In this document: in pieces, positions 1-9,442 of the stretch
Layout: every line of letters starts with the position of its first letter
Position numbering within the stretch: position 1 is the first letter of the stretch
IMG/VR virus record: IMGVR_UViG_2548876961_000016
Length of the DNA stretch: 9,442 nt
Origin: a virus
Taxonomy: Duplodnaviria; Heunggongvirae; Uroviricota; Caudoviricetes
Direction: 5' to 3' (one strand)
Translations under genes and position numbers: made by a program
The notes under the pieces: generated by a model
What the model was told of the DNA's origin: nothing
The model's database searches: none
The model's input: the letters and a program-made list of their open reading frames with translations, nothing else

Positions 1-173
1 TGTCAGTTATCATCTTCGGTTACGGTTATCGGCAGAACGCCCTGCCGCTGACAAGAGCTTATTTGCCTGACCAATCTACTCCACATGATAGATAACTATC
101 ATTTATAACATTTCATTGATTAGTCTTTATTTTTCACTATGTTACAAATAACAACTCCGTCAAAAACAGCGAA

Positions 174-396: not shown

Positions 397-817
397 GTAC
401 CTTTTCCCCAGTGGGGTAAAAGCTCCAACCGTAACGATGTTCGTTGTGGTTGCCTTGATGGTCTGCGTGGTCATTATGACCATTCAGAATTTGAAGGGTG
501 ATGTTTCCGATCTCCTCAAATTGAGGATTGTGGAAGAATCAATGGGTTAGTCTTACTTTCCCAACATCCCCCAATGGGGGTTTTCGAAATAATCAATGGG
601 TTAGGCCATAGTGCAATTTTGCACTATGGAACAATTCCAACCAGTTATCGGCATCAGGCCCACCAGCCAACGCAATTTTGCGCTTTGCTTTAATCTCAGT
701 AAGTTACCGCGCCAATTTCCGCAGTCTGTGGAAATTGGGAAGAATCAACGGGTTAGGCTGGTTTCCCCGATGTTCGCCGCTGGCGAATTTCGAAAATATC
801 AACCAGTTACCGCCGTA

Positions 818-936: not shown

Positions 937-962
937 CCCGATATGGTGATCCCCATATCGGG
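937..962. repeat. Perfect inverted repeat CCCGATATGG-(6 nt)-CCATATCGGG just downstream of the 307-aa gene
   Basis: 10-bp arms. Related copies at about 819-844 (right arm 8/10) and about 293-312 (right arm degenerate). No U-tract follows on the minus strand, so it is not a canonical terminator. Confidence 0.6.
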
Positions 963-978
963 ATAGATGCTGGAAAAA

Positions 979-1902
979 TCAGCTTTTCGCCAGAACGGTG
1001 ACGGCCTTATCGAGTTTTTGCCATCCGCAATAGGTGATTGCCCTGAACGCTGTAGCGTCATTCTGGAAAAGGCTAACCGCCCCTGATTCGGTTTTTATTA
1101 CCGCCTCATCAGTTGGGGTTATAACCGTGGCTTCAACGTTAATAATCAGCTTTTGAGCGTCTATCAGCATCATGCGATCCGCCTGTTCGCTCACAATTAC
1201 CGGTATTCTCAAAAGCTCTATCTGCCAGAACTCAGCATCAGTAAGCTGTAAGGCGTTTTCTACGGGCAATATTAGCGACGACGTGGAAAGCGTGTTACCG
1301 TTCGCTATGTGCTTTTTGAAAATCTCTATGAAGTTTTCGGCCTCATCAGCACCATTAAGCACGCCCTCAGGGGATACGCCAGCCACCTCCTGATCACTGG
1401 AAAGAAATTTTTTATCTATTTCTTTCACCGATTCCGATGTGATCAAGTCTCTGATCGCTGAATTTGTACCAGGGGTGCTAAATTTGATTAGCTCGTTATT
1501 CAGCATCACAATAGCGCCAAGTTTGCACAATTTTAGCGCACTTTCGTTTACTTCTCCCTCTTTGACAGGGATTTCTTCGGCTTCTTTAAGCCATTTACTA
1601 CCCTTGCCTGATATTGAATGCAATTTTGCGCCAAACGGAAGATTAAGCGCGCTGCTGATTAGCTTGCCTGGTACAGACTGCGAAAAAATATACTCGCCAA
1701 GCTCTCTTACTATCGGCTCTGCCACCAGCGACGGCATGTTATCCGTAGTCATTCTGTTGACGATGGATTTTTCAAGAAATTTCGATACTGCCGGATCATT
1801 TCTTTTCGTCATCTCTATAGCGTCAGCATGGCTAAATTTACACGATGCCAGCACGCTGGCGGCGCGAACTGCTGACACGCCTTTCATGTTTTTACAGATC
1901 AT
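979..1902 (-). CDS. Putative HK97-fold major capsid protein homologue (307 aa); product call tentative
   Basis: Strong RBS (AGGAGGAGGAAGAAG before the ATG). A central segment (LGAIVMLNNELIKFSTPGTNSAIRDLITSESVKEIDKKFLSSDQEVAGVSPEGVLNGADE, then SSLILPVENALQL) follows the conserved HK97-family pattern (SdELl.ds...sYi...L......E...fLnGdGtg..p.Gil, then sGivlNP.dw..i). Judged by eye, not by search. Confidence 0.55.
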   Translation of the reverse strand: MICKNMKGVSAVRAASVLASCKFSHADAIEMTKRNDPAVSKFLEKSIVNRMTTDNMPSLVAEPIVRELGEYIFSQSVPGKLISSALNLPFGAKLHSISGKGSKWLKEAEEIPVKEGEVNESALKLCKLGAIVMLNNELIKFSTPGTNSAIRDLITSESVKEIDKKFLSSDQEVAGVSPEGVLNGADEAENFIEIFKKHIANGNTLSTSSLILPVENALQLTDAEFWQIELLRIPVIVSEQADRMMLIDAQKLIINVEATVITPTDEAVIKTESGAVSLFQNDATAFRAITYCGWQKLDKAVTVLAKS

Positions 1903-2053
1903 CTTCTTCCTCCTCCTGGAAGCACGGGTTTAGTGTTTCGTGAAAATATGGCATCAGAACAGCGGCGGCCTGTAACCGTATTTCGGTCGACTGCTGCTTG
2001 TCGTTCATGATTTCCGTGAGTACATCAATAGGGTCTGTGATGTATTCGCTCAT
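1892..2053 (-). CDS. Hypothetical small acidic-tailed protein (53 aa), not in the ORF track
   Basis: My translation: MSEYITDPIDVLTEIMNDKQQSTEIRLQAAAVLMPYFHETLNPCFQEEEEDDL. GAGGT lies 8 nt upstream of the ATG at 2053; it sits between the TerS-like stop (2065) and the 307-aa gene, overlapping the latter's start by 11 nt. Confidence 0.3.
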   Translation of the reverse strand: MSEYITDPIDVLTEIMNDKQQSTEIRLQAAAVLMPYFHETLNPCFQEEEEDDL

Positions 2054-2064
2054 AGTTCGCTACC

Positions 2065-2553
2065 TCAGTGTTTTAAGTCTGTTGGTGGCTTAGGGATGGG
2101 GAACCGATTTGAGTAGACACTAGCGGCATTGAGTTTTTTAACCTCTTTTTTCCCAATGCTGCCGATCTTGCGGTGGGTGAACTGGGCCAGCTTAAACGCG
2201 GCATCTAAAGCCAGTTTTGGATCTGTGTCCATGTTGTCAATCAGTATCCTGCCCATTGCTTTGATGGGGTCGGGTAGGCCGTTATCCATCATCTCAATGG
2301 TGTTAATTGATGCCCGTTCCGGTGTAACTTTTTCGGTAACTTTCTTTGTAACTTTTTTCGGTTTTGTAACCTGAAAAGTTACATCAGAAGTTACAGCCTT
2401 AAGATACTTTTTCACCTCAGGATCGTTGGATAGCTGCCAGCCTTTAACCCTTGCGGTCTTTTCGCTGTATCCCGCATGTATAGCGGCTTCCGTGGGATTT
2501 GCGCCCCTTGATAACGCATCAGCAAACCGCTTTTTTTTGGTCGTTAATGCCAT
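2065..2553 (-). CDS. Terminase small-subunit-like HTH protein (TerS-like; possible packaging-specificity factor)
   Basis: N-terminus from the internal ATG at 2553 (MALTTKKKRFADALSRGANPTEAAIHAGYSEKTARVKGWQLSNDPEVKKYLKAV) matches the TerS N-terminal DNA-binding pattern (AAI.AGYS.K.A.....L). GAGG lies 7 nt upstream of that ATG. A 4-aa periodic linker (VTKPKKVTKKVTEKVT) follows. The open frame extends to an ATG at 2688 through a G10 tract, so the start is ambiguous. Confidence 0.6.
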   Translation of the reverse strand: MALTTKKKRFADALSRGANPTEAAIHAGYSEKTARVKGWQLSNDPEVKKYLKAVTSDVTFQVTKPKKVTKKVTEKVTPERASINTIEMMDNGLPDPIKAMGRILIDNMDTDPKLALDAAFKLAQFTHRKIGSIGKKEVKKLNAASVYSNRFPIPKPPTDLKH

Positions 2554-2575
2554 GCAAAAACCTCGTTTTGAGGGG

Positions 2576-2598
2576 GTGTAACTTTTCGTGTAACTTTT
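2576..2598. repeat. Tandem direct repeat GTGTAACTTTT x2 upstream of the TerS-like gene
   Basis: Copies at about 2576-2586 and 2588-2598. The same GTAAC(T)TTT motif recurs with 12-bp period inside the gene (about 2324, 2336, 2348, 2366) and inverted (GTTAC at about 2378 and 2390). Confidence 0.4.
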
Positions 2599-2671
2599 TT
2601 GAAAAGCAAAATTTTCTACGAATGAGACGGGGGACGGTGTCCAGGGTGATCGACTTTCCGGCCGGAACACT

Positions 2672-2681
2672 CCCCCCCCCC
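2672..2681. repeat. Homopolymeric tract C10 (G10 on the coding strand) 4 nt after the ATG at 2688
   Basis: Supported independently by both ORF-track translations (MTWGGG... on minus, ...LPPPM on plus). Confidence 0.8.
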
Positions 2682-2684
2682 ATG

Positions 2685-2846
2685 TCATTGCTCACCGAGT
2701 AACGAGATCAGGCCTTCAACTTCATTACTCAGCTTGTTTATTCGTGTCTCAAGCTCTGCGATCTTTTCCATCAATGGCGCTATAGTGTCTCTTGTTTCCT
2801 CGCCAATGGCCTTAATGATGCTTGCCTCGCGTTCTGTGATAGCCAT
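2685..2846 (-). CDS. Hypothetical small coiled-coil-like protein (53 aa), not in the ORF track
   Basis: My translation: MAITEREASIIKAIGEETRDTIAPLMEKIAELETRINKLSNEVEGLISLLGEQ. The ATG is 3 nt after the upstream stop with GGTGAGG about 8 nt upstream; its TGA overlaps the ATG at 2688 (ATGA). Confidence 0.4.
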   Translation of the reverse strand: MAITEREASIIKAIGEETRDTIAPLMEKIAELETRINKLSNEVEGLISLLGEQ

Positions 2847-2849
2847 TTG

Positions 2850-3044
2850 TTATGCCTCACCTGTTGCAATGCCCAGTCTTTCGCGTAACAGCACACGTGC
2901 AAGATGACCTATTGTTGGCGTGGCGGCTCTGCCGTATATACCAGCTTCATTCATCCGGCGAATAACATCGAATTGAAGTTTTTTAAGCTCGTTTAGGATC
3001 TCGTGATCAATCATCACGGTAGCGCTTTGCTTTATCTCTTCCAC
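2850..3044 (-). CDS. Hypothetical small protein (64 aa), first gene of the packaging-like operon
   Basis: Strong RBS (AGGAGGA 5-6 nt before the ATG at 3044) and an AT-rich promoter-like region upstream (3045-3132). Sequence MEEIKQSATVMIDHEILNELKKLQFDVIRRMNEAGIYGRAATPTIGHLARVLLRERLGIATGEA. Confidence 0.55.
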   Translation of the reverse strand: MEEIKQSATVMIDHEILNELKKLQFDVIRRMNEAGIYGRAATPTIGHLARVLLRERLGIATGEA

Positions 3045-3132
3045 TTTGTTTCCTCCTGATACTTATCATCGCATAATCAGTATTTTCGATAGATTATCAT
3101 TAATCAACCATTTTTTAAGATATGAGAGATCG

Positions 3133-3156
3133 AAAAAAAGCCGGATTGCTCCGGCT
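3133..3156 (-). terminator. Rho-independent terminator ending the replication operon
   Basis: Minus-strand RNA reads AGCCGGA, loop GCAA, UCCGGCU, then U6-7, about 20 nt after the stop at 3175. Confidence 0.6.
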
Positions 3157-3174
3157 ATGTGCTCACTCCTTCGG

Positions 3175-3483
3175 TTATTCTCCAGTGCTTTTAACGTTGA
3201 TGGTTGTTACCTGTTCCGCTTCTGCAATCTCCCGCTCTGTCAGCGTGGCAAAGTTTGCCGCCGCCGTGGTCATGAATGCGCTTATTAGTTCGGGATTCTC
3301 CTTCGCGTATCCTTCCCGTGTGTGGCGGTCTATAACTTTGATTGCCACCTTTAGGGAAAGCTCTGTCATGTCTAACGCTTTATATTTTTGCTGTGTTCTG
3401 TCTCTGCGCATTTTGGTCATTTGTCGCCCCTGATTCATGTTTTCGGTCGGCATGTTTGTTAAGTGATTTTGATGTATGCACAT
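3175..3483 (-). CDS. Hypothetical protein (102 aa; real start may be an internal ATG) downstream of the origin
   Basis: Minus-strand ORF followed by a clean intrinsic terminator on the same strand; the overlapping plus-strand ORFs look non-protein-like. Several in-frame ATGs, none with a strong RBS. Confidence 0.5.
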   Translation of the reverse strand: MCIHQNHLTNMPTENMNQGRQMTKMRRDRTQQKYKALDMTELSLKVAIKVIDRHTREGYAKENPELISAFMTTAAANFATLTEREIAEAEQVTTINVKSTGE

Positions 3484-3530
3484 TTATTTTTACCCCCCTC
3501 GTTTAAAAAGTTTTAGGTTGTGGTGCACCT

Positions 3531-3756
3531 CCTCTACCTCTTCTACCTAATCATCTTTCAGGTCAGTAATGGCGCGGCTTTCAGATGGGTAGAGGACTTT
3601 TCGTGGCCCTCTACCCATCCTCTACCCGCCCCTCACAAACGACCTTAATCATGGTAGAGGGGGTAGAGGGGTTTTATTAGCCTTCTACCTATCCCTCTAC
3701 CCACTTATCATGTTGAATAATATGCGTTTATTTCATTCAGGTAGATGGGGTAGAGG
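3531..3756. repeat. Iteron array (about 10 copies of GGTAGAGG / CCTCTACC in both orientations): putative origin of replication
   Basis: CCTCTACC at about 3531, 3608, 3619 and 3694; variants CTTCTACC at about 3541 and 3682; GGTAGAGG at about 3588, 3653, 3662 and 3749; variant GGTAGATGG at about 3740. Several copies are 9-12 bp apart, with AT-rich flanks, immediately downstream of the primase stop. Confidence 0.6.
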
Positions 3757-3770
3757 GCTTTTACAAAAAA

Positions 3771-5519
3771 TTATAAAAACGCGTCACAATCATCCGTTGT
3801 AATTGCGTTGGTCTGCGTTACTCCCTTAACTTTTCGCGTAATATATTCATGTCCGTAAACTTTCGCCGCTGGCTTCATGGCCTTGCTGAAATCAGCCACG
3901 TTTAGCGGCTTGCTTCTTCCTGCGTATGCCATAAACGCCAGATAGACGCGGTAAAGGCTGTTTCTGGTCGTGTACTTCACGGAATCGCCACCGCCACCCA
4001 TCATCAGGCCGCGCGCTTCCTCCAGAAAATTCAGGAACTGGCAAAACTCAATAACCGGATCTGTCTGTTGCTTTATCGCCAGTGCTTCATCACCGTCGCG
4101 CTGTTCCAGTAATAAAGCCCGTGCCTTTTCAGGGTCAGCAAAATTAGCCAGCAAGCGGCGGATAATCACAGGGATTTCAGCCGCGACCTTCTCCGGCAAA
4201 TCCTTGTCCTTTTCTGCCTCGCTAACGATATTGTCAAAGCGAAAAATAACCCGACGACGTGCCACGCCTCCGGCCCGTTCGGTGAATATCATCGGGTTGT
4301 TGTTGGTCGCCAGCACCACCGCCCTGATTACCGCCGTGAAACGCTTTTCATATTTCGGGTTAATTTCCACGGGGTCGCCGCCCGTGATTTTCTTGATGCC
4401 CGTTCCTTCGCCTGTATATTTCGGCTGGTCAGCCAGGACGATAAGACGACTCCCGACAACCTGCGCGCGCCCTCCTGCATCATCGAGTGATGTCATCTCC
4501 GCGCTTACGGTGTTCTGTTTCCCTGCCAGAAGGCTGGCTATGTGTGTGAATGTACTTTTACCGCTCCCGCCGTCTCCGGTGGCCTCAATAAACATCTGCC
4601 AGTCGTACCGGTTCGCCATAATCATGTACAGCGCGGCACATATACGCATCATCTTGCGCGGGTCTTTTCCGGCTGCGTGCTCAAGCCATTTATGAAAGTT
4701 TGGCGCGTTGTCGCGAATGTTCTCCCCTGGTGCTGGTGGCGTGTACTCAATGCCGTTGTGCGTGGTGATCCAGTTCTCCGGCGTGTGCGGGGAAAATTCC
4801 CCCGTTTTCAGGTCAAGTGCACCATTGGCGAACGGCAGCAAATCGCCGGACGGCTCCCCCATTGGTTCGGCAATAACTTTTAACGCTTCAACGGCGTTAT
4901 TGATCACGCGTTTGCTGAAAGTGGCCCTGTGCTCTGAATAGATCGCCACCATTTCGCGGCTAAGTTCCATTGTGCTGACCGGACACCATACCCCGCCGCG
5001 CCATACGTGAACGATTTCACTTTCAGGATGTACGCAAACGCCATCAAAGCGATCGGCAAGCAGCTGGGCGCGCTCACTGTCTGCCATTTGTGCCAGTTGC
5101 GTATTTTTCTGCTCCGGCATGGTAAGCCCTGCGGCAATATTTTCACGCTCAGCATTCAGATAGCGCCGCCAGTTTTCACACTTCTGACCGTGCATTCCTT
5201 CGGGGTAAAATTTTGCATCCTGTACGCCTGCCGCCGCCAGCTTCTGACCAATCTTTTTGGTCTCCACCAAGTCCAGTTCTCCTGCCTGGTACAGCCTTAC
5301 GCGTTTTTTTCCATCAGGAACAATTTGCAGTGCATAAAGTTCGGCAAGCTGATTTGGCCCAAGCCACACAGGAGGCACATTATCGCCGGATGCGGGGCCG
5401 TCCTGCTCCTGCCACTGTTTTGCATGTGCCCACGCATCACTACCCGCGAAAATAATCACCTCTGTGTCTTTGTGTTTTATTCCGCGTGGCTGTTTTTTTA
5501 CGTTCGGTGCCAGTTTCAT
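3771..5519 (-). CDS. Replication initiation primase/helicase (phage/plasmid primase, P4-family C-terminal NTPase type)
   Basis: 582-aa ORF with Walker A GDGGSGKST at residues about 315-323 and a candidate Walker B (RLIVLADQ). Its size and its position upstream of an iteron array match satellite and P4-like Pri/Rep or alpha proteins. Confidence 0.85.
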   Translation of the reverse strand: MKLAPNVKKQPRGIKHKDTEVIIFAGSDAWAHAKQWQEQDGPASGDNVPPVWLGPNQLAELYALQIVPDGKKRVRLYQAGELDLVETKKIGQKLAAAGVQDAKFYPEGMHGQKCENWRRYLNAERENIAAGLTMPEQKNTQLAQMADSERAQLLADRFDGVCVHPESEIVHVWRGGVWCPVSTMELSREMVAIYSEHRATFSKRVINNAVEALKVIAEPMGEPSGDLLPFANGALDLKTGEFSPHTPENWITTHNGIEYTPPAPGENIRDNAPNFHKWLEHAAGKDPRKMMRICAALYMIMANRYDWQMFIEATGDGGSGKSTFTHIASLLAGKQNTVSAEMTSLDDAGGRAQVVGSRLIVLADQPKYTGEGTGIKKITGGDPVEINPKYEKRFTAVIRAVVLATNNNPMIFTERAGGVARRRVIFRFDNIVSEAEKDKDLPEKVAAEIPVIIRRLLANFADPEKARALLLEQRDGDEALAIKQQTDPVIEFCQFLNFLEEARGLMMGGGGDSVKYTTRNSLYRVYLAFMAYAGRSKPLNVADFSKAMKPAAKVYGHEYITRKVKGVTQTNAITTDDCDAFL

Positions 5520-5815
5520 TTTTTACCCCTGAATACGTTAAGCATCTTTTTTATTTCCTGAATATTGGCGCGTGCTTTCTCCCTGCTGGTTGGCTTACTG
5601 CGGGGCGCTGCCTGTACCAGAGAAAAATCACGGTTGAACTGATAAACAGGCATAACGCAATCATATTCGTAGCCTTCACGGCGGTAAGTTACGCGCCGTT
5701 CCTCCACGCCCTTAATCATTACCGTGCCGCCGTACTTATCGCGGTAAATATCCCCGCACATGAATTTAGTGCGAGTTTTGCCGCTGGCAGTTAAGCCAGA
5801 ATATTTAAGTTTCAT
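5516..5815 (-). CDS. Hypothetical protein (99 aa) immediately upstream of and coupled to the primase gene
   Basis: ATG at 5815 with GGAGA about 9 nt upstream; its stop overlaps the primase start (ATGA). Basic protein (MKLKYSGLTASGKTRTKFMCGDIYRDKYGG...), no motif recognised. Confidence 0.55.
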   Translation of the reverse strand: MKLKYSGLTASGKTRTKFMCGDIYRDKYGGTVMIKGVEERRVTYRREGYEYDCVMPVYQFNRDFSLVQAAPRSKPTSREKARANIQEIKKMLNVFRGKK

Positions 5816-5820
5816 TATTT

Positions 5821-6081
5821 TTATTCTCCGATAGCGTGACCTGATAAGCCGTTAATCTTCTCTGATGTGCTCTCTATTTTGCTGGTGGAAATATTCAGTA
5901 ATTCAGAAATGGCAAAGGTTAATCTTGTCGTTGACTCGTCACGCTCGCAATTTGTCAGCGATTCAAACCAGACGTTAATAATCTCACTTACGGCATTGTT
6001 GTAAGATATTGCGCTTTGTGTGAGTTCATTCAATTCGCAAATTACGCGTTTGTTATTGTTCATAGCGTTTAAATCTCTCAT
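5821..6081 (-). CDS. Hypothetical small protein (about 80-86 aa; start at ATG 6081 or 6063)
   Basis: The ORF track starts at TTG 6084; in-frame ATGs follow at 6081 and 6063, neither with a strong RBS. Asn/Ser/Ile-rich. It overlaps the upstream ORF end and its stop sits in the RBS of the next gene. Confidence 0.4.
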   Translation of the reverse strand: MRDLNAMNNNKRVICELNELTQSAISYNNAVSEIINVWFESLTNCERDESTTRLTFAISELLNISTSKIESTSEKINGLSGHAIGE

Positions 6082-7132: not shown

Positions 7133-7357
7133 CTACGCTGCCTTACCTGAATTAATACGATCCCGGCTTTTAACCCATTCCATAACCTCGGAAAGCAGCC
7201 AACCTACTGAACGACCACCCAGATTACGGCGTGACGGGAAATTCCCTTTTTTCTCCAGTTCGTAGCGTGTAGTGCGGCACACTCCTGTTAACTTACGGCA
7301 TTCATCCTCACGGATTACGCGATCTGATAGTGATTGAAATTGTGTATTTTGATTCAT
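7133..7357 (-). CDS. alpA: AlpA-family (Phage_AlpA / Vis-like) HTH transcriptional regulator
   Basis: 74-aa ORF. Core RVIREDECRKLTGVCRTTRYELEKKGNFPSRRNLGGRSVGWLLSEVMEWV matches the AlpA-family pattern (l..ev...tGlsrst.y.l...g.FP.p..lg.r.vgW...ev..W). Its position downstream of the integrase matches CP4-57-like elements. Confidence 0.85.
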   Translation of the reverse strand: MNQNTQFQSLSDRVIREDECRKLTGVCRTTRYELEKKGNFPSRRNLGGRSVGWLLSEVMEWVKSRDRINSGKAA

Positions 7358-7419: not shown

Positions 7420-7453
7420 GTGTGATATCACACTACCAGCACGTGATATCACT
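7420..7453. promoter_or_regulatory. Pair of palindromic operator-like sites (GTGTGATATCACAC and GTGATATCAC) about 21 bp centre to centre, upstream of alpA
   Basis: Perfect 14-bp palindrome at about 7420-7433 and perfect 10-bp palindrome at about 7443-7452, sharing the core GTGATATCAC. Two-helical-turn spacing is typical of cooperative dimer binding. The second site overlaps the stop codon of the 257-aa gene. Confidence 0.5.
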
Positions 7454-8222
7454 TTTTACGTTTTTGTTGAGATTCACGCCCCAAATACTTTTGCCATGTC
7501 TGCCAATGTGTTTTTGGAAATTCTATCCCTCTGGATGCAGCTATAGAATCAATTAAATCTGCTATTTTAGGTAATGATTCCGTGTCCAGGTCTACATCAC
7601 CCATTTCTGGAATAAGTTTAATTAAAGAGTAAATAACCTCATTCCTTTTTGACGATGCTTTTGGGCTATCTTCTGTTATCTTCGGGAAGTCTCCCGTATT
7701 TTTTATATTATCTAAATCACTAGCCATCACACACAAATAGTTAACATCAAATTCATAACCACCCTTACAAAAAACATACATGAGATTATCATCACCATAC
7801 TTATTCGTAAGATGAGAACATTTTATATATTGTCTCATGCTAAATTCGACATCAGCAAAAACATATGCCGGAGTATAATAAAACCCTGATAAGCTGCTAA
7901 CATAATAACATTTGATAGAATTCCCTACAGGACCAATAATGGCACTATCTAAAAATTCAGTGTCACCAGTTAAACCAACTGTAAAATTACTTCCAAAAAC
8001 AGCAGATTCATCATTGAAAGGATATTTTATTAATTCTTCCTCATTACAACCATTGATAAAATGACATAATGAAAAATTGAATTTTTTAGCATCAATTTTT
8101 GGTATATATACAGAAATATTAAGAGCACCTATATATGCGTAATGATAAAGATCTTTTATTGCACAGCCTAACTTTTCTGCCGCTTCAGGTAACGGATAAT
8201 AGAGTCTTTTAGGTAATTTCAT
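7449..8222 (-). CDS. Hypothetical protein, AT-rich cargo gene in the int-alpA slot; N-terminal HTH-like segment, remainder unrecognised
   Basis: 257-aa ORF whose start overlaps the integrase stop by ATGA. Residues 5-35 (LYYPLPEAAEKLGCAIKDLYHYAYIGAL) resemble an excisionase/MerR-like helix-turn-helix; the rest is Tyr/Phe/Asn-rich with no motif I recognise. G+C looks much lower (roughly one third, by eye) than flanking genes (about half). Followed by a hairpin plus U-tract (7358-7392). Confidence 0.65.
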   Translation of the reverse strand: MKLPKRLYYPLPEAAEKLGCAIKDLYHYAYIGALNISVYIPKIDAKKFNFSLCHFINGCNEEELIKYPFNDESAVFGSNFTVGLTGDTEFLDSAIIGPVGNSIKCYYVSSLSGFYYTPAYVFADVEFSMRQYIKCSHLTNKYGDDNLMYVFCKGGYEFDVNYLCVMASDLDNIKNTGDFPKITEDSPKASSKRNEVIYSLIKLIPEMGDVDLDTESLPKIADLIDSIAASRGIEFPKTHWQTWQKYLGRESQQKRKK

Positions 8223-9442
8223 TTGGCCACCTTCAGCATAACAATATTTTCATGATTTCCAGCCAGCACATCGAGGCGCTCAACCCATAGATTAAGAGCG
8301 TCACGTTTTGCATCAAGATAACGGGAGTGATTATAGACTCGTTGCATTCCTGGCAACTGGTGCGCGGTAAGCTGCTCCACAACATGCGGTTCCACGCCTA
8401 AATCGTTCAGCATCGTTGTAAACGTGTGCCGGATGTCGTGCAACGTCCAGGGGGCTTGATTAATGCGTCTGTGTGCCGTTCTTCCGTACTCTGATACGGA
8501 TGATTGCCCTTTCAGTTCTCCGAGCAATAAGCCCGTGTGCCTGTTCTGCTCCACCAGCTTCATGACAAACGGCAAGATCGCTTCCGGTATTGGCCTGAAT
8601 ATTGCTACCTTCGTTTTGCTGTGTTCTTTCGGCACGGTCCAGAGCATTTCTTTAAAATCCCATTCCTGGACCTCAGAGCGTCTTAGCTCAGTGGTACGAC
8701 ATCCGAAGACAATCAGGAGGCGAATCAGGGCGCTGTAGTACGGTGGGTAAATTTTTTCATCAAGGGCGCGTAGTAATTCCCCAAGCTCCTTGTTTGTTAG
8801 TACGCGCTCGCTTATTTCTGCTTTTTTCCCAACATCACCGACAACCATATCATCAAGAACGTTGCTGATTGCGTATCGTCGTTTTCGGCAGTACTTAAGC
8901 GCCTGTTTGCATACCTGTAGCAAAAATCCGGCTGATACCGGATTACGCTTAGCAAGCTGGTCAAAACAGGCCAGCCAGTGGCGTAGCTCGCATTTTTCCA
9001 GTGGCATAGCTCCAATCTGGCTAATTATGTGTTTATTGATCCGGCTTTTCAGTGATTCGTAGTCAGTGCGCTTTTCCTTTGCGTACGATTCAAGCCAGTA
9101 AGTGAGCGCTTCCTTAACCGTCACGGGGGCTAACGCGTCCTGTACAGCATGATTAAGTTCATAGCGCGGATTTTTCCCCTCAGCCAGCCATGCGCGACAT
9201 TGCGACGCTTTTTCCCTGGCTGCTTTCAGGCTCAAATCTGGATAATTTCCCAGCCTCAGACGTTCAGGTGATATCTGCCTACCAGTTCCGGACCTGTAAG
9301 TGAAATACCAGGTTAACAGGCCATTGGTTGAATGCCTTACGCTAAGGTTGCCACCATCATTAAAAAAGGTGCTTTTTGTGGTTGGTGATCCGCTTAATTT
9401 TCGTAAAAGAGTGTCGCTAAGTCTATGAATTGCCCTGCTCAT
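8219..9442 (-). CDS. int: Tyrosine site-specific integrase (P4/CP4-57-type phage integrase family)
   Basis: 407-aa ORF. C-terminal catalytic region has the His-x-x-Arg box (LHDIRHTFTTML) and a tyrosine-containing tail (RVYNHSRYLDAKRDALNLW); an upstream Arg box is present (FGCRTTELRRSEV). The ATG is on the last bases of the window, so promoter, att site and any longer N-terminus are not visible. The stop overlaps the next gene start (ATGA). Confidence 0.9.
   Translation of the reverse strand: MSRAIHRLSDTLLRKLSGSPTTKSTFFNDGGNLSVRHSTNGLLTWYFTYRSGTGRQISPERLRLGNYPDLSLKAAREKASQCRAWLAEGKNPRYELNHAVQDALAPVTVKEALTYWLESYAKEKRTDYESLKSRINKHIISQIGAMPLEKCELRHWLACFDQLAKRNPVSAGFLLQVCKQALKYCRKRRYAISNVLDDMVVGDVGKKAEISERVLTNKELGELLRALDEKIYPPYYSALIRLLIVFGCRTTELRRSEVQEWDFKEMLWTVPKEHSKTKVAIFRPIPEAILPFVMKLVEQNRHTGLLLGELKGQSSVSEYGRTAHRRINQAPWTLHDIRHTFTTMLNDLGVEPHVVEQLTAHQLPGMQRVYNHSRYLDAKRDALNLWVERLDVLAGNHENIVMLKVAK

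Follow-up and report, generated by a model that had tools for sequence, protein, structure and literature searches.

The 9,442-nt stretch of viral DNA analysed here (the window) is a classical Gram-negative PICI at the known cspD-clpS att site, and the 307-aa protein encoded at positions 979 to 1902 is its standard lone capsid homologue. We regard the identification of this protein as a PICI capsid homologue as close to certain. Among Gram-negative PICIs, a lone capsid homologue belongs to the documented core features, and the cassette that bears this one is found in a catalogued element; the discovery value of the gene is therefore small. What remains of value is that a concrete class of candidate helpers can be named, namely prophages of the Stx1a, Stx2c and PPompW types with a protease::capsid fusion. 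Because terS and the capsid gene point to one and the same helper class, the role of the capsid genes of Gram-negative PICIs becomes testable in STEC, in which the interplay of PICI and helper could affect the yield of Shiga-toxin phages.

Limits, gene content and class of the island

E. coli strain MA11 carries a sequence 99.9% identical to the window, and a nearly intact copy is present in each of 29 complete genomes. The island is neighboured by clpS and clpA on the left and by yljB and cspD on the right. In addition to the att core ATGATAGTTAT on the clpS side, there is a second copy on the right, 172 nt outside the window. With cores at both ends, the island is fully delimited and measures 9.53 kb. 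Its features are these:

92..102, minus strand: att core ATGATAGTTAT, clpS side; for EcCIIHE3034, both this core and the cspD-clpS site have been published (PMC6092414 Table S1)
937..962: palindrome CCCGATATGGTGA/TCCCCATATCGGG, at the cassette boundary
937..3406, minus strand: portable late cassette, delimited by blastn and made up of the palindrome, the capsid gene, the 53-aa ORF, terS and three small ORFs
979..1902, minus strand: HK97-fold major-capsid-protein homologue, 307 aa, the PICI “capsid morphogenesis” component (Pfam, PHROG, TIGR, model and Foldseek)
1892..2053, minus strand: 53-aa ORF between terS and the capsid gene, resembling the C-terminal helix motif of TerS
2065..2553, minus strand: small terminase subunit (TerS); the RefSeq start gives 162 aa, and the longest ORF extends to 2688
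3771..5519, minus strand: PICI primase-replicase with D5_N, DUF5906 and Pox_D5 domains and a C-terminal domain of the P4 primase family
7133..7357, minus strand: AlpA-family regulator (PF05930, E=3.4e-16; phrog_2790)
7449-8222, minus strand: 257-aa ORF between int and alpA, in an AT-rich stretch (GC 31-33% vs ~46% elsewhere)
8219..9442, minus strand: tyrosine integrase (Pfam Phage_integrase and Arm-DNA-bind_3), 92% identical at the amino-acid level to the EcCIIHE3034 integrase

The genes follow the order int, the 257-aa gene, alpA, an Icd-like gene and other small genes, DUF4222, primase, small ORFs, terS, the 53-aa ORF and capsid, and a small YlcI/YnfO gene is the only one not on the common strand. 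Pfam, PHROG, NCBIfam and PADLOC returned nothing for the 257-aa ORF. A Klebsiella aerogenes island has a gene with 38% identity to it in the equivalent place, which marks the ORF as a conserved PICI gene rather than random cargo.

All annotated genes of the island were screened for head functions. Neither Pfam and PHROGs nor the RefSeq annotation, which was read together with that of the flanks, shows a portal, a protease, a scaffold, a large terminase, a connector, or any tail or lysis gene; the capsid gene is thus the sole head-morphogenesis gene besides terS. A reading made from the sequence alone (the sequence-only reading) had described a TerS-like gene and small ORFs as the only company of the capsid gene, with no portal, protease, scaffold or large terminase. 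Pfam, PHROG and the RefSeq annotation agree with that description. That reading had also allowed that a head module might lie beyond the window; none does, and clpS/clpA and yljB/cspD flank the att-bounded island.

In SatelliteFinder, “capsid morphogenesis” is one of the five core components of a PICI, and portal, connector and adaptor genes are forbidden ones (PMC10085698). Measured against that core list by Pfam and PHROG assignment, the five-component set is present in the island as int, alpA, primase, terS and capsid. Further, genes for a portal, for head-tail connectors or adaptors, for tails and for holins are missing; the island is small, is bounded by att direct repeats, and has mostly co-directional genes. 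A portal, a prohead protease, head-tail connectors, an HNH gene and a large terminase of its own, which characterise the cf-PICIs, were not found. Neither was a psu-delta-sid operon of the P4-like kind, no such families occurring among the Pfam and PHROG matches, and kinship with P4 is limited to the C-terminal domain of the primase. We also considered a prophage fragment and rejected it: att repeats at a known PICI site bound the island, with core genes on either side.

A non-coding stretch of ~870 nt (103-965), rich in repeats, separates att from the capsid gene. It contains a palindrome, CCCGATATGGTGATCCCCATATCG, in near-identical copies at 819-846 and 937-964 and in a diverged copy (64%) at 293-320, together with an 88-nt direct repeat (314-401 and 851-938, 95%) and a repeated motif of the GGAAGAATCAATGGGTTAG type. 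Parts of the stretch are found, without annotation, in 1091 E. coli genomes, and Rfam returned no family for the whole window. When positions 100-980 were compared with phages, the only match was one of 57 bp (window 499-555), 90-91% identical to part of the roi/antirepressor gene of Stx1a-converting and related lambdoid phages; no helper cos-like region was found. The stretch may be a packaging site.

A capsid homologue with the HK97 fold

The 307-aa protein has the HK97 fold, and the assignment to this capsid family, which the sequence-only reading had made from sequence patterns, is sound. The protein matches PF05065 (Phage_capsid) over profile positions 47-274 of 280 with E=1.3e-6 and 28.4 bits, above the Pfam GA of 24.2. 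Among the PHROG major head families it matches 617 (E=1.8e-10) and 10 (E=5e-8), and with TIGR01554 (major_cap_HK97) it scores 26.3 bits, slightly under the cutoff of 27.5. Exhaustive comparison by phmmer with 1.84 billion representatives yielded 488 relatives (E<=1e-3). Close relatives measure 315-349 aa and many of the distant ones 600-740 aa, the same length as a protease::MCP fusion that we confirmed in the Stx1a phage LC567819.

An AlphaFold2 model made from 16 homologues is of moderate confidence (pLDDT 67, pTM 0.67). Its weak stretch comprises residues 88-122, which we read as the E-loop; this loop, the A- and P-domains and the spine helix characterise the HK97 fold. The model bears on the fold and not on any preference for pentamers or hexamers. 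Foldseek comparison of the model with the PDB gave 196 matches at E<=1e-3, and the best 50 of these are, without exception (50/50), HK97-fold capsid or encapsulin proteins. The structural comparison that the sequence-only reading had named as a check therefore came out in favour of its fold assignment. At the level of sequence, a profile was needed to find a match in the PDB, because single-sequence phmmer gave nothing better than E=2.1. The family profile found the Bxb1 MCP (E=1.4e-6), and the capsid proteins of Bxb1 and 80alpha were the only ones that it retrieved.

A strong Shine-Dalgarno sequence, AGGAGGAGGAAG, precedes the ATG of the capsid gene, and this ATG and the stop of the 53-aa ORF upstream share an 11-nt overlap. 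An alternative start, M6 at position 1887, coincides with the point at which the homologues of other genera begin. We rejected a chance ORF at 979-1902 on the grounds of the ribosome-binding site, the dN/dS, and the profile and fold matches. An encapsulin was likewise rejected: by sequence, the protein is related to phage capsid proteins and to protease::capsid fusions rather than to the linocin family. PADLOC gave no match for the capsid homologue, the 53-aa ORF or the 257-aa ORF. A pattern search of genome contigs with the family alignment produced 24 pattern matches, none of which was confirmed.

Conservation of the capsid gene

The capsid gene occurs in 220 of the 5426 complete E. coli genomes, and its carriers are mostly STEC of types O157:H7, O26, O111 and O103. 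All of these copies (220/220) are full length, at 95-100% identity, and the dN/dS of the gene, calculated against two variants, is 0.16-0.17. Homologues of 307-322 aa are present in Serratia, Klebsiella and Arsenophonus (38-79% identity), and both length and position are kept in four genera, at identities of 38-53%. Wherever the flanking DNA is long enough, in contexts from Arsenophonus, Serratia and Klebsiella, the homologue occupies the distal end of an int-alpA-replicase island, or a place close to it, and is the only head gene there; two further contexts are interrupted by contig ends. Portal, protease and TerL are absent from the homologue-bearing islands of these three genera. The capsid homologue is thus a protein of constant length under purifying selection. 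The full-length copies, the low dN/dS and the cross-genus homologues at a kept position argue against a decaying relic.

The wider family has variants of its own. Islands at the fis/dusB site in Klebsiella (L006 11000-13297) and Serratia marcescens (L013 7141-9534) have a capsid homologue and no recognisable terS, and a 765-797-aa protein with no Pfam family adjoins the homologue or lies near it. In Arsenophonus nasoniae (CP123498.1, L003), a prophage harbours a related island, of the order int-alpA-primase-terS-50 aa-capsid, which separates the head-completion genes from those for tail assembly and the tape measure. ORF fragments border the island on both sides (L003 1640-1840 and 11382-11597); by position and sequence, these look like the halves of a split major tail gene. 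This prophage-embedded island resembles the helper-embedded PICIs of PMC10111431. An exact-pattern scan aimed at the Arsenophonus prophage gave no matches.

A portable late cassette

The capsid gene travels with terS as a cassette between PICI backbones. Positions 937-3406 are recovered by blastn as a single block of 2470 bp, at 95% identity, in EcCI11128 and in an O26:H11 island (loci L008 and L011), and both of these islands carry a different integrase (tRNA-Pro/yejM site) from that of the window and, in addition, a RepA helicase.

The TerS of the cassette has a Terminase_2 N-terminal domain (E=2.5e-10) and matches phrog_641 (E=3.5e-43). It is 47% identical to the TerS of the Stx1a-converting phage LC567819, with the C-terminus as the most conserved part. 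The 53-aa ORF matches phrog_641 as well, only at positions 89-125 (E=3.5e-7), which correspond to the C-terminal helix motif, the part in which the TerS of the PICI and that of the candidate helper agree most closely. Pairwise BLASTP of the 53-aa ORF with the PICI TerS gave no alignment, and the PHROG profile is the only link between the two. ORFs of 50 aa in Arsenophonus (L003 9837-9989) and 54 aa in Serratia (L004 9840-10004) occupy the equivalent position. The 53-aa protein could be a mimic of the TerS C-terminus that disturbs helper packaging in a Ppi/Rpp-like way.

Candidate helper phages

Searches by tblastn with the capsid homologue and with TerS lead to much the same phages. The former gave 112 phage records, among them 35 Stx1a, 17 Stx2c and 13 “Enterobacteria”; the latter gave 116 of nearly the same make-up (36, 17 and 13, respectively). 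Both sets are dominated by STEC prophages of the Stx1a, Stx2c and PPompW types. The closest phage relatives of the two proteins, at 23-25% identity for the capsid homologue and 46-47% for TerS, are in the same STEC lambdoid prophages. From these data we infer that prophages of the Stx1a, Stx2c and PPompW types are the likely helpers of the island.

The head module of the Stx1a phage LC567819 consists of HNH, TerS, TerL, a 645-aa protease::capsid fusion (Peptidase_S78 and Phage_capsid) and a portal. Residues 7-296 of the capsid homologue align to residues 291-625 of the fusion with 25% identity and E=1e-19. This alignment identifies the 307-aa protein, at the level of sequence, as a diverged paralogue of the capsid part of the STEC-prophage protease::capsid polyprotein. 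Compared with that 645-aa polyprotein, the homologue is without the protease domain and starts about 290 residues later, and some 55 residues stand N-terminal of its Pfam capsid domain; given the span of the alignment, it corresponds to a capsid domain from which the protease and the greater part of the scaffold region have been lost. The phage protease::capsid gene is present in 1251 of the 5426 E. coli genomes, in up to seven copies per genome, and it occurs together with the PICI capsid gene in at least one of them (NZ_CP169026.1).

Proposed mechanism and alternative explanations

That a capsid paralogue might co-assemble with the protein of a helper and so change the size of the capsid, as the sequence-only reading had suggested, is plausible by analogy, and the idea is not new. 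The precedent is Ccm of SaPIbov5. This protein is 24% identical to the helper capsid protein, fills the pentamers and forces small T=4 shells, and it forms no capsids on its own (PMC8569155). The capsid homologue of the island, with no scaffold of its own, would be unable to build a shell alone, and the lack of a protease and scaffold region suggests that it would need to co-assemble with the helper polyprotein. In such a scheme, the homologue would enter the shell together with the helper protease-scaffold-capsid protein and, like Ccm in the pentamers, would bias assembly towards small capsids. These would suit an island of 9.5 kb and shut out a helper genome of ~50 kb, and the island TerS would recruit the helper TerL to the island DNA. 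We consider Ccm-like co-assembly and size redirection by the 307-aa protein possible, at somewhat under an even chance. When the protein's identity as a PICI capsid homologue and its Ccm-like action are taken together, our judgement falls slightly on the favourable side of even.

Simple arithmetic bears on this scheme. The island amounts to 19% of a helper genome of 49.6 kb. If a T=7 shell were reduced to T=4, it would have room for some 43% of that genome, or about two island units; reduction to T=3 would leave room for some 28%, or about 1.5 units. These values agree with headful packaging by a dedicated TerS, though the argument is speculative.

A bolder proposal is that terS, the 53-aa ORF and the capsid homologue form a portable three-gene hijacking unit directed against STEC lambdoid prophages with a protease::scaffold::capsid polyprotein. 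The scaffold-less paralogue would enter helper procapsids, for example at the vertices, with small capsids as the result; the island TerS would redirect the helper TerL; and the 53-aa look-alike of the TerS C-terminus would block the helper TerS. We view this proposal as rather doubtful. If it is true, it would be the first mechanistic account of the capsid genes of Gram-negative PICIs, and, should the lambdoid helpers also be isometric, it would extend redirection of the Ccm type beyond the prolate helper of SaPIbov5.

The same protein could serve other ends. It might act purely in interference, as a dominant-negative subunit that poisons or mis-shapes helper procapsids, lowers the yield of the helper and so defends the host, with no productive small capsids. 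PICIs typically interfere with their helpers (PMC6092414), and a 307-aa protein that has neither protease nor scaffold regions can act only by mixing with helper subunits. An altered function would also fit the far greater divergence of the capsid homologue from the helper (23-25% identity) than that of TerS (47%). However, the tight linkage and translational coupling of the gene to the terS packaging cassette suggest a role in the encapsidation of the island itself, and the poisoning of all capsids would block the transfer of the island too; we therefore think pure interference unlikely. At the opposite extreme, the 307-aa protein might by itself build a satellite capsid and borrow portal, protease and tails from the helper, the island being a degraded or minimal capsid-forming PICI. 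This is very improbable. The genes that define the cf-PICIs, namely portal, protease, head-tail adaptor, HNH and TerL (PMC10085698), are absent; the protein has no sequence-level match to the EcCI2 capsid protein; and published trees split the capsid genes of PICIs from those of cf-PICIs almost perfectly (PMC10085698). Moreover, the phage relatives of the protein assemble with a covalently fused scaffold that the 307-aa protein lacks, and even Ccm makes no capsids by itself (PMC8569155).

The gene could, finally, be a dispensable late gene captured from a helper, a backup copy or leftover with no role for the satellite, as has been suggested for helper-embedded PICIs. It has been proposed that late genes adjacent to the integration site are captured by PICIs and that the loss of a PICI capsid gene by knockout was tolerated (PMC10111431); the position of the related Arsenophonus island in a prophage late region would agree with such an origin. 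A further case is EcCICFT073, whose c1499, of the lambda-E type, is the only Gram-negative PICI capsid homologue to have been deleted. The deletion had no phenotype: interference with lambda was unchanged, and the island was packaged in full-size capsids (PMC6092414). This result also counts against Ccm-like size redirection by the 307-aa protein. Set against these facts are the dN/dS of 0.16-0.17, the 220 full-length copies among 220 in E. coli, and the length (307-322 aa) and position that are kept across four genera at 38-53% identity. The cassette also passes intact between backbones, and an identity of only 23-25% to any phage capsid protein means that the capture was not recent. Dispensability is, in our estimation, quite improbable.

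Comparison with known systems

A lone capsid gene in a Gram-negative PICI is already documented and is common. Of 29 reference Gram-negative PICIs, 21 have a major-capsid homologue (PMC10111431). Capsid homologues have been described in EcCICFT073 (c1499) and PmCI172, and for the latter a Ccm-like role has already been suggested (PMC6092414). The sequence-only reading had set the element apart from known PICIs; that claim does not survive the figure of 21 of 29, nor the presence of the same cassette in EcCI11128. The cf-PICIs (EcCIEDL933 and EcCI2) differ from the island in having portal, protease, head-tail connectors, HNH and TerL, all of which are absent here. The vertex protein gp24 of T4 is another imperfect parallel, for it is a product of the phage itself rather than of a parasite and does not redirect capsid size.

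Ccm of SaPIbov5 (PMC5052747, PMC8569155), on which the proposal of co-assembly and size redirection is modelled, differs from the 307-aa protein in several respects. A profile search of PDB sequences detected no sequence relationship between the two, and Ccm has an 87-residue delta domain in place of the ~55 residues that precede the capsid domain here. SaPIbov5 has no terS and uses the cos site of its helper, whereas the island has a terS of its own. The capsid protein of the candidate helper is made as a protease::scaffold::capsid fusion. Ccm turns a prolate helper capsid isometric, and the candidate helpers here are lambdoid prophages, for which the geometrical problem is a different one if they are isometric. 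Further, the function of Ccm was demonstrated by experiment, whereas the 307-aa protein is known from its sequence and a model.

The closest parallels are among the catalogued PICIs of E. coli. The coordinates of EcCI11128 (E. coli O111:H- 11128; PMC6092414 Table S1) take in a capsid gene of the window type, which is 96.9% identical in nucleotides to that of the window. As in the window, the cassette is located at the distal end of a ~9 kb int-alpA-replicase island that has no other head genes. The backbone is a different one: EcCI11128 combines a tRNA-Pro/yejM integrase with a RepA helicase, whereas the window has a cspD-clpS integrase and a primase of the D5/P4 type. EcCIIHE3034 presents the complementary picture. 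It shares the att site of the window, an integrase 92% identical to the window's and the possession of a lone capsid gene, and window positions 3189-5830 have 87.5% DNA identity to it. In contrast, the capsid protein of EcCIIHE3034, like that of EcCICFT073, is of the lambda-E type (351 aa) and is accompanied by a gpD-like decoration protein; BLASTP of the EcCIIHE3034 capsid protein with the window protein gave no match (E=0.25). EcCIIHE3034 (L010 7609-9011) and the window (979-1902) thus have near-identical integrases at the same site and unrelated capsid genes, which suggests that late cassettes are swapped to suit different helper head types. With a cassette that matches EcCI11128 and an integrase, att and primase region that match EcCIIHE3034, the window is a mosaic of catalogued PICI modules.
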